IMG/VR virus record: IMGVR_UViG_3300043410_000189
Span: 1 to 29,780 of that record
Strand: one strand, 5' to 3'
DNA length: 29,780 nt
Source: a virus
Lineage: Duplodnaviria; Caudoviricetes
In this document: positions 3,246 through 13,051 of the stretch, in pieces
Layout: each line of letters opens with the position of its first letter
How positions within the stretch are numbered: the first letter of the stretch is position 1
Translations under genes and position numbers: made by a program
The notes under the pieces: model-generated
Seen by the model: the letters and a program-made list of their open reading frames with translations, nothing else
Told to the model about the DNA's origin: nothing
The model's database searches: none

Positions 3246-3270
3246 AAAAAAGCCTCTTTTTACGGAGGCT
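3246..3270 (-). terminator. Intrinsic terminator after the HTH gene
   Basis: AGCCTC-N8-GAGGCT hairpin followed by a T-tract on the minus strand. Confidence 0.8.
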
Positions 3271-3276
3271 ATTTAC

Positions 3277-3483
3277 TTAGTGTAGGTGTTTTTGCTTGTA
3301 ATTATAGACGTCTAACTTTTTTAATGTGGATAGTGTTACGTCTTTTCCTTGTATGAAGTTGTCTATTTGGAATTGGTGGAACTTTTCGTTTGTTGCTTTT
3401 ATCTCTTGCACGATTTGATTTTTAGTTCGTGTTTTCAGAAGTTCTAAAATATCCCATCGAAGTTCTTCGTTATTTATGTGCAT
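3277..3483 (-). CDS. Small HTH (Cro/XRE-like) protein
   Basis: QFQIDNFIQGKDVTLSTLKKL resembles an XRE recognition helix and its following helix. Confidence 0.6.
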   Translation of the reverse strand: MHINNEELRWDILELLKTRTKNQIVQEIKATNEKFHQFQIDNFIQGKDVTLSTLKKLDVYNYKQKHLH

Positions 3484-3716
3484 CAGAAGGGGAGATCATC
3501 GTTAATAAAAGGTTTGCTTTCCATCTTTTCTGGTGCGATATATGGCTCGCTGAATGCTACCGAAAAGAATTTTTCTCCTGATTTAGATTCTTTTACCCAC
3601 ATTACTACTTCCATTTCTTTTCCGTTTACTACTACGTTACCTCGATAATCTGGGTGCGTGTCTTTTTCCTTTCGTTTATTCTTAAAAATTGCTCCTGAGT
3701 TGTTTTTCTTTTCCAT
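3483..3716 (-). CDS. Small ssDNA-binding-like protein (DUF736-like)
   Basis: FKNKRKEKDTHPDYRG motif; acidic SSB-type tail DDLPF. Confidence 0.65.
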   Translation of the reverse strand: MEKKNNSGAIFKNKRKEKDTHPDYRGNVVVNGKEMEVVMWVKESKSGEKFFSVAFSEPYIAPEKMESKPFINDDLPF

Positions 3717-3726
3717 GTTTACTTAT

Positions 3727-3828
3727 TTAAAATTTACTAATAAATGCAACTATTAATGTCAATACTACTACACCAACTAAAAAAATTGTCGATAGTGCGG
3801 CTATATATTCCTTATCTTCTTCTTTCAT
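3727..3828 (-). CDS. 33-aa single-pass membrane protein (not in the ORF track)
   Basis: MKEEDKEYIAALSTIFLVGVVVLTLIVAFISKF; ATG lies within the cassette junction ATGA. Confidence 0.6.
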   Translation of the reverse strand: MKEEDKEYIAALSTIFLVGVVVLTLIVAFISKF

Positions 3829-4070
3829 TGTTCTTGTTTTTTAGGGTTAAGGAATACACTTCCTTTGATTTTGTTTTCGATTACTATTTCATCATCTTGG
3901 TATAAACCATCTTTAGCATCATCTTGCATCATTTTTATGAGTCTATTTTTTCTTAGATTTCTTTCGTTTTCAATATACTCATCTAACTTATTGTTTTCTT
4001 CACGATTTATATATATCTGAAAAGCTAATGTTAATATGCTTATTAAAAGTGCGGTGATTGATAGTATCAT
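3825..4070 (-). CDS. Cassette protein with N-terminal TM helix, ending KQEQ
   Basis: Hydrophobic N-terminus; IKMMQDDAKDGLY motif; ATGA overlaps at both ends. Confidence 0.7.
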   Translation of the reverse strand: MILSITALLISILTLAFQIYINREENNKLDEYIENERNLRKNRLIKMMQDDAKDGLYQDDEIVIENKIKGSVFLNPKKQEQ

Positions 4071-4225
4071 TCTTCGTCTTTTACTATTTCTAATGTTCCG
4101 TTGATTGAATATCCAGTCAATCGAATCAACTGCTCGATGTAGTAAAGCAAGTCCTCAAGTTCCACATCTTCGTGTTCAAACTCGTAGCTTGCTTTATGTC
4201 CGTAGTGGGTTATTTCTATTTTCAT
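4067..4225 (-). CDS. 52-aa hypothetical protein (not in the ORF track)
   Basis: MKIEITHYGHKASYEFEHEDVELEDLLYYIEQLIRLTGYSINGTLEIVKDEE; ATGA overlaps at both ends. Confidence 0.7.
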   Translation of the reverse strand: MKIEITHYGHKASYEFEHEDVELEDLLYYIEQLIRLTGYSINGTLEIVKDEE

Positions 4226-4428
4226 TGTTCTTGTTTAAAGGTTTCGTTGTAGTATTTTTCTGCAGTTGCGTATGGCTTGTCTCTTAATACAAATGATTCA
4301 TTGTAAGCCTTAACAATCTGTTGCTTCTCCATTTCTTTGGCTTGTTCAAACAAATCTCCAAATGTTCTTACTGCTCCCGAACCGTGTTTTTGTAGTTCCT
4401 CCATTAGCCATTCTACTGCTGTATTCAT
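4222..4428 (-). CDS. Cassette protein (MxTAVEWL...YYNETFKQEQ type)
   Basis: Starts and ends in junction repeats; AKEMEKQQIVKAY core. Confidence 0.8.
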   Translation of the reverse strand: MNTAVEWLMEELQKHGSGAVRTFGDLFEQAKEMEKQQIVKAYNESFVLRDKPYATAEKYYNETFKQEQ

Positions 4429-4440
4429 TGTTCTTGTTGT

Positions 4441-4932
4441 TTAAAGGTTATTGATTTCGTGTTTTACTTGTGTCCAATATGTTAAACCCATTGGATGAGG
4501 TGTGAAGTAATCACTTGATTTTGCAAATTCCCTATCATCAAAGTGCTTGTCATCCTTTCTACTTTCAATTACTTCATCAACTACAATCAATGCGCATTCT
4601 ATGGCAATCTGTTTAGTTTCAGCTCCTTTAAATACATATTTTGTAAATAACTTTTCTGCTTTTTCTTTTGGTGTCATATTTGTTCTTGTTTTTTTAAAGG
4701 TTTCGTTGTAGTATTGTTCTGATATTTCTGTAGTGCCAATAGAAGGTCTATATCCTTGATAATGTGCATTAACTATATACTCTTTCTCTAATTCTTTTAG
4801 TTCTAATGCAACTCTTTTTGCAAATGCTAAACCAATCATTCTGCCACGTACTTCTGATATATACTGATGCGTTTTTAAAAAGTCAACTTCATTGTCTATT
4901 TCTGCAATTATTTTTTCTACTGCTGTTTTCAT
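4441..4932 (-). CDS. In-frame fusion of an MKTAVE...YYNETF cassette and an MTPKEKA cassette (internal ATG at 4677)
   Basis: True start is probably the ATG at 4932 in the junction repeat; degenerate junction at 4674-4702 read as FKKTRTNMTPKEKA. Confidence 0.7.
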   Translation of the reverse strand: MKTAVEKIIAEIDNEVDFLKTHQYISEVRGRMIGLAFAKRVALELKELEKEYIVNAHYQGYRPSIGTTEISEQYYNETFKKTRTNMTPKEKAEKLFTKYVFKGAETKQIAIECALIVVDEVIESRKDDKHFDDREFAKSSDYFTPHPMGLTYWTQVKHEINNL

Positions 4933-4945
4933 TGTTGTTGTTGGT

Positions 4946-5152
4946 TTAAAGTTCTGCTCCAATAGCTTCTAAATCATCTATTGTTTGAACTGAGTTAATA
5001 ATTGAGGGAATGTTAATAACATCCGCTCCGTTTTTAATTTGGAAGAATAATGTTTGAAAATCCAAACCATTGCTATAAATAGCCTTGTATCCAGTTTTTC
5101 CTTCTTGTTCTTTTGTGTATCTCTCTACACTTTGTAAAAATTTTGTTTTCAT
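4946..5152 (-). CDS. Cassette hypothetical protein
   Basis: Starts at a junction ATGA; stop is the TAA of the next junction's TTTAAA. Confidence 0.7.
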   Translation of the reverse strand: MKTKFLQSVERYTKEQEGKTGYKAIYSNGLDFQTLFFQIKNGADVINIPSIINSVQTIDDLEAIGAEL

Positions 5153-5463
5153 TGTTCTTGTTGTTTAGTTAGTTCTTCTATTTTTTGCTCTAGTTCTGTG
5201 ATATACCTTAACACACTAATTGGTGTTTTGATATAATCTTCTTCTGCATTTTGCTTGAAGTAATCTAAGTCTTTCTCTTTCATTGTTTTTTGTTTAAGTA
5301 ATTCAATTGCTTTTTGGAATCCTTGTTTAAATCCATAAATTGTATCTAATTTTTGAGTTTCTGAAGTTGTGTTTTCACCATAACTATTGTATCTATGTTT
5401 AATACTATCTTTAGCAAACTTATCAACCTCAACACTTTCTAAATATTCTACTGCTGTATTCAT
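5149..5463 (-). CDS. In-frame fusion of an MNTAVEYL cassette and an MKEKDL cassette (internal ATG at 5283), ending KQQEQ
   Basis: Degenerate junction AAACAAAAAACAATGA at 5280-5295 read through as KQKTMK. Confidence 0.7.
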   Translation of the reverse strand: MNTAVEYLESVEVDKFAKDSIKHRYNSYGENTTSETQKLDTIYGFKQGFQKAIELLKQKTMKEKDLDYFKQNAEEDYIKTPISVLRYITELEQKIEELTKQQEQ

Positions 5464-5522
5464 TGTTCTTGTTGTTTAAAGGTTTTACATTTCGTGTTTA
5501 GATATGTGGCAATTTTTACCCC

Positions 5523-5759
5523 TTATCCTTGTTTAAATTGTTTTACTTCTTGCTTCAAACGCTCCAAGTACAGGCAGAAGTCCATCGCTTCATCCTGAGC
5601 GTGATTAAGCCATTCTAACGCACTTAAATCAGTTCGTGTTAACATTGTACCGTACTTCTCAATTCCTCGTTGTGAGCGGTAATAAAACTTGCTCATTACT
5701 TTTAGTACAATTGGGTCTTCGACTTTTACTGGTTTATCTTGGTCGTGTGTTATGTTCAT
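5523..5759 (-). CDS. Conserved phage protein, possibly all-alpha NTP-pyrophosphatase (MazG-like)
   Basis: RSQRGIEKYG..LTRTDL..WLNHAQDEAMDFCLYLE helical acidic motif. Confidence 0.55.
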   Translation of the reverse strand: MNITHDQDKPVKVEDPIVLKVMSKFYYRSQRGIEKYGTMLTRTDLSALEWLNHAQDEAMDFCLYLERLKQEVKQFKQG

Positions 5760-6436
5760 AAGAATTTCATTAAGGCGTTATAATACTCACGGCAATACTC
5801 TATCTTCTCTTTAATTTGTTCGATGACTGCTTCGTCTTTTTGTACGTAGAATACTTTTACTCTTCGGTTTTTAGGCACTTGGCTAAATTCGTGTTTACGC
5901 AGAATCTCCTCTCGCAAGTCTAAGTCCTCTTCAATCTTGTGTAACTTCCAATGGGCTCTGCGGATTTCGTCTTCAACCATATCAATCGGAGTATCTACAA
6001 GGCAGTAGCAAAGCATTGACTGTTGTTTTCCTGTTAGCCACATATAACCTTGAAGTTGATAGAAATAATCTTTGTTAGGTATCTCTGTATCAAAAAACGG
6101 AAAGGTAGTAGCATCCCAACTTGATTTCACGTCTAAAAGTATTTCTTCCGTGTTTACGTCAGGCGTTCCTTTAATCCAATCGTTCTCAAAGTATTCTTCG
6201 TTCTTGTAGATAAATTTTACGTCTAAGACATCATTGACAAGTGAGATAGATAAATCTTCAACTGCGTTACCTTTGTCCGTGTAACGGCTTGAAAACTCCT
6301 TTCTAATGCCGTATTTGTCCTCTAATACAAGTTCATGTATGTAACTTTTAGCAGTTTGGCTAAGTAATTCGCCTTTTGCTCGTGGTGTAGCCATGATTTT
6401 ACCTATGGCAGAACATCGAATCTTGAGAGTCTTCAT
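5756..6436 (-). CDS. YqaJ/lambda-exonuclease-like PD-(D/E)XK nuclease
   Basis: RCSAIG, KGNAVE, GTPD, LLDVKSSW, YFYQLQGYM; adjacent to ERF. Confidence 0.85.
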   Translation of the reverse strand: MKTLKIRCSAIGKIMATPRAKGELLSQTAKSYIHELVLEDKYGIRKEFSSRYTDKGNAVEDLSISLVNDVLDVKFIYKNEEYFENDWIKGTPDVNTEEILLDVKSSWDATTFPFFDTEIPNKDYFYQLQGYMWLTGKQQSMLCYCLVDTPIDMVEDEIRRAHWKLHKIEEDLDLREEILRKHEFSQVPKNRRVKVFYVQKDEAVIEQIKEKIEYCREYYNALMKFL

Positions 6437-6948
6437 AGTGCGTTAAGTATATCGGTTTGCCCATCAGTTAATTTGAACGCAGACTCTAACTTTTCACGAG
6501 TATAAGAACCATCTTGAATTGCTTTTAGAGCAGATTGAAAGCGTTTGTTGTCCATTGTAGGAAGTGTTTTAACTTGCTCTCCGCTTGCATCCGTGTCTTT
6601 GTCTGTTACTAATCCAAGTGCAGAACTCAAAGCATAGCGTCTGTAATAAGTTACACCTGATCCGAATCCTTGATAATCATTCATGCCCTTAAGCTGAACG
6701 TAATGAATCATACACTCAGATTCCATGTATTCTCCACTCTCGTGAAAGATTACAGTCTTTAAGCAGTTTTGTCCTTCGTTGTTGGTTAGTTGCTGAGTGA
6801 ATCCAAGTCCGTGTTTTTTTAGTATTGGGTTGATTACCTCAAAAATCTTGGGTAAATCTGCGTAAGAATACCCATAGCCTTGAGTGGCTTTGTGAATTAC
6901 AGGAACTTCTTGTTGGAATGATGCCAACGATTTAAATAGATTTTTCAT
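6433..6948 (-). CDS. erf: ERF-family single-strand annealing recombinase
   Basis: YSYADL, GSGVTYYRRYALSSALGL..DKDTD signature. Confidence 0.9.
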   Translation of the reverse strand: MKNLFKSLASFQQEVPVIHKATQGYGYSYADLPKIFEVINPILKKHGLGFTQQLTNNEGQNCLKTVIFHESGEYMESECMIHYVQLKGMNDYQGFGSGVTYYRRYALSSALGLVTDKDTDASGEQVKTLPTMDNKRFQSALKAIQDGSYTREKLESAFKLTDGQTDILNAL

Positions 6949-7000: not shown

Positions 7001-7546
7001 TTATAAATATTTTAATGATGTTGTATTTTTTCTCGTTCCCAATAGGTAGTGTATTAGTGTTGACCTTTTAATACCAAGTTCAACCGATGCTTCTGTTGCT
7101 GAATCGTAAATTATATTAGTTTTTGTGCATAATACTTTCTTTGCATTTTTTTCCTTTAGTATCTTTTTTAGATTCTCACTCATTATGAGTTTTGGATATC
7201 TATTATTTGCTCTTGCGTGTCTAATATTTTCTAAATGAGTAACCCACTCTAAATTATTTACATTGTTATTAGACCTATTTGAATCTATGTGATTTACACA
7301 TAAGTCTTTTTTATCACCTAAAAATGCGGAAGCAACTAAACGATGTACTTTTTTTGTTGACCTCAATCCATTCTTAGTTAGAACTACTTTTTTATACCCA
7401 CAATCAATACCAGCTTTTAGTATTATTTCCTTTGTAATATAACAACCTTTATTTGCATGTTTTAATTTTGGTAGTGCTTTAACTCTTCCATAATTAGATA
7501 CTTGATATAAACCCTCATATCCAATAACATCTTTCCAAATTTCCAT
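7001..7546 (-). CDS. NUMOD4-HNH homing endonuclease
   Basis: EIWKDVIGYEGLYQVSNYGRV (NUMOD4); VHRLVA, VNHID..NN..NLEW..EN (HNH_3); NUMOD1-like C-terminus. Confidence 0.92.
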   Translation of the reverse strand: MEIWKDVIGYEGLYQVSNYGRVKALPKLKHANKGCYITKEIILKAGIDCGYKKVVLTKNGLRSTKKVHRLVASAFLGDKKDLCVNHIDSNRSNNNVNNLEWVTHLENIRHARANNRYPKLIMSENLKKILKEKNAKKVLCTKTNIIYDSATEASVELGIKRSTLIHYLLGTRKNTTSLKYL

Positions 7547-11760: not shown

Positions 11761-11977
11761 CGTTTCGAGTTATTAGAAGTCCGTATTTTTGTAGCACTGG
11801 CGATTGCTCGTGGTGTTTAACTTGCGAGTTATATGTCTTTACGACTTTAGTTGGATATGTGTTTGTCGAACTGAGCCACAACAAAAACACGAATCCACAT
11901 AACGCAAGACCAATTCCTTTAAATAAGTCCTTGTCGCAGTCTTCCAACATTCTCCATTCTTTAATAATTGTTTTCAT
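11750..11977 (-). CDS. Small membrane protein
   Basis: TM segment GIGLALCGFVFLLWL; GCTATGAAAA start context. Confidence 0.7.
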   Translation of the reverse strand: MKTIIKEWRMLEDCDKDLFKGIGLALCGFVFLLWLSSTNTYPTKVVKTYNSQVKHHEQSPVLQKYGLLITRNDAK

Positions 11978-12132
11978 AGCATTTGAATTATATAGTTAAA
12001 AATTAAATCGTTTTTTTCTACTTCTGATTTAGCGTAAGCATCTGCTTCTAAGTGCGAGCTAAACGCTTTTACTTCACGATAAAGAGTCGTATTATCTTCA
12101 CGCAAGTAATAGATTTTAAATAGCTTCTCCAT
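11974..12132 (-). CDS. 52-aa hypothetical protein (not in the ORF track), paralog of 12304-12465
   Basis: MEKLFKIYYLREDNTTLYREVKAFSSHLEADAYAKSEVEKNDLIFNYIIQML; ATGA overlap with the downstream gene. Confidence 0.65.
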   Translation of the reverse strand: MEKLFKIYYLREDNTTLYREVKAFSSHLEADAYAKSEVEKNDLIFNYIIQML

Positions 12133-12292
12133 CTTCAATTTGTTCAAGTAATGTATTTAACTCATACCATATCGCAGAAGCTCTTAAAGTTGATATATCA
12201 TCAGAACCAAAATTCTCAATGCAATCTTGTAAATAAGTATAAGCCTCCTGCTCTTTTGACTTGATTAAGTCGATAATTTCTTGTTTTGTCAT
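12116..12292 (-). CDS. 58-aa hypothetical protein (not in the ORF track)
   Basis: MTKQEIIDLIKSKEQEAYTYLQDCIENFG...EDGEAI; GCTATG start. Confidence 0.7.
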   Translation of the reverse strand: MTKQEIIDLIKSKEQEAYTYLQDCIENFGSDDISTLRASAIWYELNTLLEQIEDGEAI

Positions 12293-12303
12293 AGCTCAAT
12301 TAA

Positions 12304-12465
12304 TTAAAGTTCAAAGATTTGAAATGTAAATAAATCATTGATATTTGATGTTGCGATAATTAGTTGTGCGTATGCTTGCGCACTCTCTAAGTTTACAAAC
12401 TCATCAGTCTTGCTAAATAGTTCGTTGTTATCGATGTCTTGAAATTCAATTTTAAAAGTTTTCAT
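12304..12465 (-). CDS. Early hypothetical protein (start at 12465, MKTFKIEF)
   Basis: ACGCTATGAAAA start context. Confidence 0.7.
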   Translation of the reverse strand: MKTFKIEFQDIDNNELFSKTDEFVNLESAQAYAQLIIATSNINDLFTFQIFEL

Positions 12466-12469
12466 AGCG

Positions 12470-12703
12470 TTATTTATTAATAAATTCAATTACTTGATTA
12501 ATACTTCTTGCGGTTTTATTCCAATATGATAAACCCAAATCATTAGCATAATTAAATACTGAAAATTTAACTCGTGAATCGTAGCCTGATTTTTTACCAT
12601 TGATAGAAGTTAACTTAATAACCAGAGTTCCATCAACATAAATCAATGTTTCTTTGTCCTTTGTTAAGTTACAAACTTGTTTTGTTGTTGTGATAGTTTT
12701 CAT
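12470..12703 (-). CDS. First early gene, hypothetical protein
   Basis: Follows a canonical promoter; ACGCTATGAAAA start context. Confidence 0.75.
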   Translation of the reverse strand: MKTITTTKQVCNLTKDKETLIYVDGTLVIKLTSINGKKSGYDSRVKFSVFNYANDLGLSYWNKTARSINQVIEFINK

Positions 12704-12991: not shown

Positions 12992-13018
12992 AAAAAAGCC
13001 TCCGATTAAAGAGGCTCT
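12992..13018 (-). terminator. Intrinsic terminator ending the late region/sRNA
   Basis: AGCCTC-N8-GAGGCT followed by TTTTT. Confidence 0.85.
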
Positions 13019-13051
13019 TACGCTATGAAAATGGAATATGTCACAAATATA
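12992..13051 (-). ncRNA. Candidate ~50-nt antisense sRNA (promoter TATATTTG, seed UUUUCAUAGCGU, terminator)
   Basis: TTTG-N22-TATATTTG promoter; seed at 13031-13020; AGCCTC/GAGGCT hairpin plus T6. Confidence 0.6.

Follow-up and report, generated by a model that had tools for sequence, protein, structure and literature searches.

The window (the whole stretch of DNA analysed, 29,780 nucleotides) is a complete freshwater phage of about 29.65 kb, since a 127-nt exact overlap joins its ends and its gene set, encoded entirely on the minus strand, is that of a phage (terminase, portal, lysis, helicase, NinG, HNH, ERF, exonuclease, SSB-like and sigma-like genes). No tRNA was found in the window. The host is probably a member of the Bacteroidota, as suggested by the scarcity of G at the gene starts of the window (as expected without an SD), by the match of its exonuclease to Nonlabens phage P12024, and by the titles of the 16 genome contigs that carry the mini-gene family described below, 9 of which name Bacteroidota, the others being mixed and perhaps mis-binned. 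Among 50,697 phage records there were no cultured relatives, and five records gave short exonuclease or ERF matches only. The window also carries a NUMOD4-HNH homing endonuclease between NinG and ERF (7001-7546, minus strand), two related terminator-like hairpins that bracket the replication and early region (3248-3274 and 12993-13019), a second small-ORF cluster that lacks the junction (11974-12703, minus strand), and the letters AACGCT immediately before ATG at the starts at 6948, 12465 and 12703.

The array under study is read on the minus strand between two fixed flanks. Upstream lie the ERF single-strand annealing protein (6433-6948; Pfam PF04404, E 7.5e-28) and the exonuclease used as the query for collecting relatives (5756-6436; phrog_5715, E 1e-61), so that profile matches confirm both neighbours named in the original prediction. 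At the array head, a 78-aa anchor gene of unnamed function (5523-5759), which matches only unnamed PHROGs and Atlas clusters and is kept in 53 of the 54 arrays compared below, is followed by a non-coding, possibly promoter-like head box (5485-5520) of two conserved blocks with a fixed-length spacer, and by an exact junction core (core 1, 5460-5478) that is part of a 55-nt repeat shared with 4410-4464. Next come two cassettes fused in frame via a degenerate junction (5280-5298) and ending KQQEQ (5149-5463), a junction core whose stop overlaps the start (5149-5167), a 68-aa cassette whose stop is the TAA within the next junction (4946-5152), and that junction core, with three mismatches (4929-4947). 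An MKTAVE cassette is fused in frame to an MTPKEKA cassette via the degenerate junction at 4674-4694 (whole ORF 4441-4932), with a worn internal joint near 4777-4806. After an exact junction core (4425-4443) stands a full member of the TAVEW / EQAKEMEKEQ / YYNETF mini-gene family with three predicted helices (4222-4428), within which the codons of EQAKEMEKQQ (4318-4347) form an internal joint, a putative site of gene-half exchange according to the linkage switch and the codon test. The remainder comprises a junction core that is exact but of short form, 3 nt shorter (4222-4237), the common tail gene MKIEIT with a partial junction at its end (4067-4225; in 22 of 54 arrays), an 81-aa cassette with a hydrophobic N-terminus and a KKQEQ end that has no relative among the 54 arrays (3825-4070), a junction core with three mismatches (3825-3843), and, in the last slot, a 33-aa hydrophobic peptide (3727-3828) for which relatives carry a similar peptide. 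The SSB-like gene (3483-3716; phrog_18154, E 3e-12) forms the fixed downstream flank. A probable third joint lies inside the MTPKEKA family, at the codons of CALIAVDEI (window 4560-4595, minus strand; L095/L140, loci of other contigs being given L numbers throughout).

Compared with other phages, the window array is a patchwork whose pieces end at joints, each piece being nearest to a different phage. Positions 5487-5290 are 98% identical to L100, L107 and L053, where the shared segment ends at a junction, and 5167-4929 are 93% identical to L112, junction to junction. The ORF at 4441-4932 breaks into pieces resembling L139 (4943-4790, 97%) and L085 (4776-4680, 95%; 4563-4456, 91%), and 4449-4324 are 96% identical to L099, which carries another back half.

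The junction motif is confined to the array. A 21-mer search with at most three mismatches gave five matches (3825, 4425, 4929, 5149 and 5460), all in the array, against 0.01 expected, and the other 48 gene starts of the window lack the motif, with at most 0.7 bit per position. Eight copies had been placed exactly at gene boundaries; six are true stop/start boundaries, whereas the degenerate copies at 4674 and 5280, in which 7-8 of 20 letters differ when gaps are disallowed and the A-runs have drifted, are read through by the upstream ORFs (4932-4441, 163 aa; 5463-5149, 104 aa). The fusion at 5280 appears to be a worn junction, because the cassette at this position in L053 ends KQQEQ-stop. L030 has the identical fusion, and contigs of one freshwater sample, probably the source of the window (two runs, hence not independent of it), carry the same letters at 4674 and 5280. 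The weaker copies reported near 4067 and 5523 hold the motif in part only. Both proposed ways of supplying the upstream stop do occur, with KQ(Q)EQ-TGA overlapping the ATG at 5149, 4222 and 3825 and a junction-internal TAA at 4946 and 4441, and the boundary at 5460 has a 59-nt gap and no abutting stop. Each boundary has one junction copy, which serves both neighbours, and pairs of window junctions share mostly 15-26 nt, up to 55. Among ORFs chosen for a KQ-EQ tail, 359 of 360 codons follow CAA-GAA-CAA and 120 of 121 stops are TGA, and the 80 type-1 boundaries show a 4-nt overlap at 42 and a gap of at least 5 nt at 36. Conservation of the core is inflated by the selection of junction instances for likeness to the consensus. 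The junctions appear unstructured, three regions folding at 0 to -2 kcal/mol and a fourth, with the head box, giving a z of -0.14. Some relatives (L061, L069, L072 and L079) have a second type of junction, which ends FKSE-stop and leaves 11 nt or 1 nt before the next start; it is mixed with type 1 in L090, L117 and L144, and the same cassette is found with either type (L069, L081). L030 also has a long endonuclease-like ORF within its array, with a junction at its end.

The original prediction held that unrelated small ORFs share a KQEQ tail and that three share an MxTAVE head. Tail and heads are present (the latter at 5463, 4932 and 4428), but the MxTAVE genes are one large family, sharing the motifs TAVEW, EQAKEMEKEQ and YYNETF. 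Gene halves switch partners at the middle motif (14/19 and 13/16 recurrent types), the change-over lying within a second core of about 27 nt inside these genes. Among 69 genes picked by protein motif alone, with the same genes as background, top codons at the three motifs numbered 439/496 against 206 expected, 261/273 against 155 and 145/160 against 68, and rare codons were kept within the motifs (GCC in 58/69, GAG in 50/50). Because this constraint on codons lies mid-gene, a start-signal model is insufficient. The family profile reached 8,717 clusters (threshold E<=0.001). Searches against Pfam and PHROG found no family common to more than 2 of 53 members, the fold had no PDB match at E<=0.001, BFVD gave uncharacterised phage proteins only, and an Atlas search gave hypothetical clusters only. 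The mini-protein is predicted to form three helices coinciding with the three motifs, and most of what varies falls in between (pLDDT 82, pTM 0.65). Members also occur in L325-L340, contigs with a looser junction or none (a junction copy in 5/16), so the mini-gene family is wider than the junction type.

The head box is 36 nt long, present once in the window and found in about 200 stored stretches, with its two blocks kept at constant distance. It is polar, with the junction downstream in 87/108 loci and upstream in 11/116. A sigma-70 promoter scan did not call it, and its promoter-like nature is a guess from the sequence. Directly after the head box, 28/108 loci carry a non-coding element of 90-100 nt (L001:6999-7092, L003:4037-4127, L029:6701-6797 and others) that ends in a terminator-like hairpin, comes and goes in a cassette-like manner and is absent from the window. 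Its first hairpin has a GACG loop and compensatory changes in 4 of 5 pairs (15 sequences), and single-sequence folding did no better than shuffles. Neither the window nor 13 loci gave an Rfam match at the gathering score, and an E-value search of six loci yielded a single tRNA match; a hammerhead reading of this side RNA was dropped. A different non-coding insert of about 65 nt follows the head box in L047, L207, L223, L265 and L285, and in L285 a tRNA-like sequence containing a long insertion comes after it.

Relatives were collected by their exonuclease (80 at 86-96% identity), and 58 of the 80 span the region from exonuclease to SSB, with a slot of 321-2712 nt. The spanning relatives and the window, once identical protein lists were removed, gave 54 distinct arrays with 249 ORFs in 86 families (69 seen once) and 38 gene contents, so cassette content varies between fixed flanks, as had been proposed. 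Arrays follow a common plan of anchor gene, optional head box, hypervariable block, common tail genes, hydrophobic peptide and SSB. Junctions are dense in the slot (116 in 56.6 kb vs 5 in 410 kb of flank); 10/54 arrays have none and 23/54 have one. The variable order that had also been expected was not borne out, as 65 of the 71 pairs that co-occur keep the same order; three of the six pairs seen in both orders come from one duplication. Arrays therefore change by gain, loss and replacement more than by permutation. Adjacencies seen once account for 84 of 100 junction boundaries vs 57 of 149 other boundaries, and a stricter partner-turnover test on recurrent genes gave 12/27 vs 42/64 for junction and non-junction starts (p = 0.067). 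Of 36 distinct clean insertions among close relatives, in a set where a single deleted locus, L014, accounts for seven rows, only four have repeats of at least 20 nt at their flanks; most share 0-11 nt there, and several share only the stop/start overlap. With so few insertions flanked by repeats, exchange via conserved flanking genes or rarer events appears to contribute as well. In L081 (3179-4715), where a 174-kb contig ends, a unit of three cassettes forms a tandem 651-nt repeat, which may be a duplication or an assembly overlap.

The borders of shared DNA were examined in 145 loci, leaving out 16 duplicates and 45 short loci, and segments were counted where identity was at least 92% and the segment was the pair's only shared DNA. 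Isolated segments lie in arrays in 79 of 88 cases, arrays making up 137 of 974 kb. As predicted, the borders fall in the junction, which holds 32 of 53 distinct 5' ends and 35 of 55 3' ends against a null of 0.23-0.25 (p about 3e-9); a further 5 (5') and 7 (3') ends lie at the internal motif, and 16/53 and 13/55 elsewhere. Joints near junctions in the contigs X3 and X14 were left uncounted, being from other phages at 90% likeness. Since alignments extend through any shared motif, and ends alone cannot split homology from whole-gene selection, linkage was tested on 369 distinct contexts, counted per type. Letters at -16 and before are identical in 75-92% of the pairs sharing the upstream gene and near random in pairs sharing the downstream gene, whereas from +6 on letters follow the downstream gene. 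The linkage switch thus falls inside a 19-nt core, from -15 to +3 of the start codon, and rare letters within the core follow neither neighbour. At least two partners were found for 54/59 recurrent upstream types and 54/58 downstream types. Contig depth is lower between the two 40-nt repeats than in either flank (51 vs 60 and 82; 44 vs 55 and 62), which was considered as a sign of excision and rejected, because the flanks differ too; contig depth is flat per contig and so unsuited as excision evidence.

The exact 25-mer of the junction occurs in about 220 IMG/VR stretches, on contigs of up to 174 kb, and in none of the GTDB genome contigs; judged on abstract openings, no published description of the motif was found in the open literature. 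Loci with the 25-mer adjoin exonucleases of 28-34% identity, or no exonuclease, and the cassette pool appears to span unrelated phages. One cassette, about 250 nt from junction to junction, recurs at 98.8-99.6% identity in L029, L086, L120 and L123, the backbones of which differ, and such near-identical copies in unrelated backbones bear out the idea that cassettes are common to different phages. A special link to ERF finds no such backing, because elsewhere the junction lies near ERF, Sak, RecT, Rad52/22, PolA or DUF932 genes (39 of 93 long ORFs scanned), or has no annealing protein in view. Another contig of the same freshwater sample carries the junction with other genes, suggesting that exchange partners co-occur.

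The data show varying content and changing neighbours, with the change-over inside -15 to +3. We consider it likely that the array is a variable small-gene slot in which co-infecting phages swap, add or lose genes by short-homology recombination in the 19-nt core. Annealing-type homologous recombination during co-infection or replication would act inside any of several short shared cores, and each recombinant would stay in frame and ready to translate, with no integrase needed. Exchange could be run by phage annealing proteins of any class (ERF here) or by host RecA, and longer flanking identity, such as the TAVE head, the YYNETF tail or conserved flanking genes, would help. In phage D3, Erf/Exo recombines diverged DNA (PMC3945230). 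Against this reading stand the length of the core, 19-21 nt, under the roughly 30 bp quoted as a minimum for RecA and Red (PMC2327257), the mostly conserved order, the many indels that lack a full junction, the arrays with no junction copy or one, and the segment ends that lie elsewhere. The core would be kept because it would act as a strong Bacteroidota start signal free of structure and would provide the stop of the gene before it, and drifted copies would drop out of the exchange pool; the core would have a double role, as start signal and as exchange site. The products may be proteins that the phage can do without and that act on the host, like those of the lambdoid nin region, whose position is similar.

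One alternative is that the motif is only a copied or convergent start signal, similar to SAS, with random illegitimate recombination and selection for whole-gene joins. The positive start determinants of F. johnsoniae are A at -3, -6, -12 and -13 (PMC6847099), and the core carries all four, with a 5' edge that matches the A-rich region. The core is also unstructured and persists where it is non-coding (the 36/80 type-1 boundaries with a gap of at least 5 nt), and many indels have little flanking repeat. This explanation nevertheless seems unlikely, given that a single junction copy serves both neighbours (with a 4-nt overlap at 42/80), that the 48 other starts of the window share no such motif, and that rare core letters follow neither neighbour. 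It is further weakened by the internal joint, at which rare codons are kept and partners switch in the same way although it lies mid-gene. We also see only a slim chance that a dedicated, undescribed recombinase, site-specific or guided and supplied in trans by the host or another phage, recognises the core. What room there is for such a pathway comes from the tension between the competence of Erf/Exo on diverged DNA and the 30-bp minimum quoted for Red and RecA. The core is short, sharply bounded and common to unrelated phages, its C and G positions are unexplained by the start-signal model, and the polar head box recalls attI/Pc. The head box is optional, however, the core has no inverted repeat and no fold, and no recombinase family was found among the 54 window proteins or among 39 neighbours selected from other backbones. 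Cores of at least three unlike kinds behave in the same way, and several unlike cores (type 1, type 2 and internal) fit homology better than one enzyme site.

A mosaic of this kind could also be an assembly artefact, as short repeats make chimeric contigs in mixed viromes. All the data are metagenomic contigs, a 40-nt identical repeat splits the graph of the freshwater sample, in which no contig spans the array, and the 651-nt duplication of L081 lies at a contig end. Most joints, however, share 15-26 nt, which is below the 31-letter words of Logan contigs, and Logan contigs read through joints unchanged (pieces of 1055 and 1240 nt). Identical arrays recur in separate records (L020, L022 and L025; L061 and L064), and artefacts cannot fix codons, making this explanation very improbable. 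Short-homology exchange in the core is the reading that we retain. A bolder reading, which we regard as doubtful, is that unrelated freshwater Bacteroidota phage families share a community-wide, two-level cloning standard powered by a recombination pathway dedicated to short cores. Its 19-nt stop/start plug would join whole genes and its frozen mid-gene joint would recombine two hypervariable loops on a three-helix scaffold, yielding host-binding proteins as an antibody-like library (>8,700 clusters at 50% identity).

For the long-standing linker view of how phage genomes become mosaic, the array provides a testable case at base level in which crossovers stay within 19 nt, and it suggests that ending one gene, starting the next and serving as exchange site can all fall to a single sequence. 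Exchange of this kind would account for the source of diversity in a very large unnamed family of phage mini-proteins. The array also shows that phages of different families draw on one gene pool, draws attention to a library of candidates for host-interaction proteins, and raises the question of efficient phage recombination with less than 30 bp of identity.

Among known systems, the array works like the shuffling of PeSLs or linkers and is not an integron, although the original prediction was of an integron-like system. The attC sites of integrons carry the core site RYYYAAC and fold as hairpins. The other integron core site is GTTRRRY (PMC9892861); each has one match in the array, both intragenic (4487, 3987) and none at junctions, and an attC reading of the junction was rejected. 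In line with the same prediction, no integrase family was found among the 54 window proteins scanned. Likeness to integrons and CALINs (PMC9892861) lies in co-oriented single-gene units behind a head element and in a huge pool of orphan genes. Unlike in those systems, there is no integrase, attC core site or hairpin here, order is mostly kept, and cassettes are translationally overlapped. SAS of Cluster K mycobacteriophages resemble the junction as non-palindromic repeats in one orientation just before the ATG of non-structural genes, sometimes holding the upstream stop (PMC3203893). They are, however, an SD-containing 13-bp consensus dispersed over the non-structural arm, with no exchange role found in the available text (PMC3203893), whereas the core here is A/C-rich without an SD, is confined to one 1.7-kb array and marks partner switches.

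The account of PeSLs from the T4-type phages RB49 and phi1 (Arbiol 2010) describes a repeated element at the borders of orphan genes in a plastic region, which includes the upstream stop and the downstream start and allows gene gain, loss and replacement by homologous recombination with no dedicated recombinase (PMC2839356); its authors likewise draw the integron comparison. Gain and loss breakpoints fall at the repeat here as well, with partly contrary rows among the clean insertions. PeSLs are about 100 bp long and intergenic, with promoter, stem-loop and SD, and their mini-circles have been shown (PMC2839356). The junctions lack this set of features, the core being 19 nt, unstructured, often coding in the upstream gene and without a promoter per cassette, common to unrelated phages and partnered by a joint inside genes, and the array is known from contigs alone. 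Lambdoid linkers are described as short conserved flanks that let non-homologous modules exchange in place (PMC2839356, PMC2327257); short conserved flanks around non-homologous modules common to phages are likewise found here, and the array has a nin-like position beside ERF, exonuclease and NinG. While those linkers mark fixed module borders, here one sequence recurs in tandem as many as a dozen or so times, so that arrays lengthen and shorten, and the units are single genes and half-genes. Beyond the original prediction, the analysis adds the intragenic joint that appears to swap gene halves, the array head box, and a pool that spans unrelated phages.
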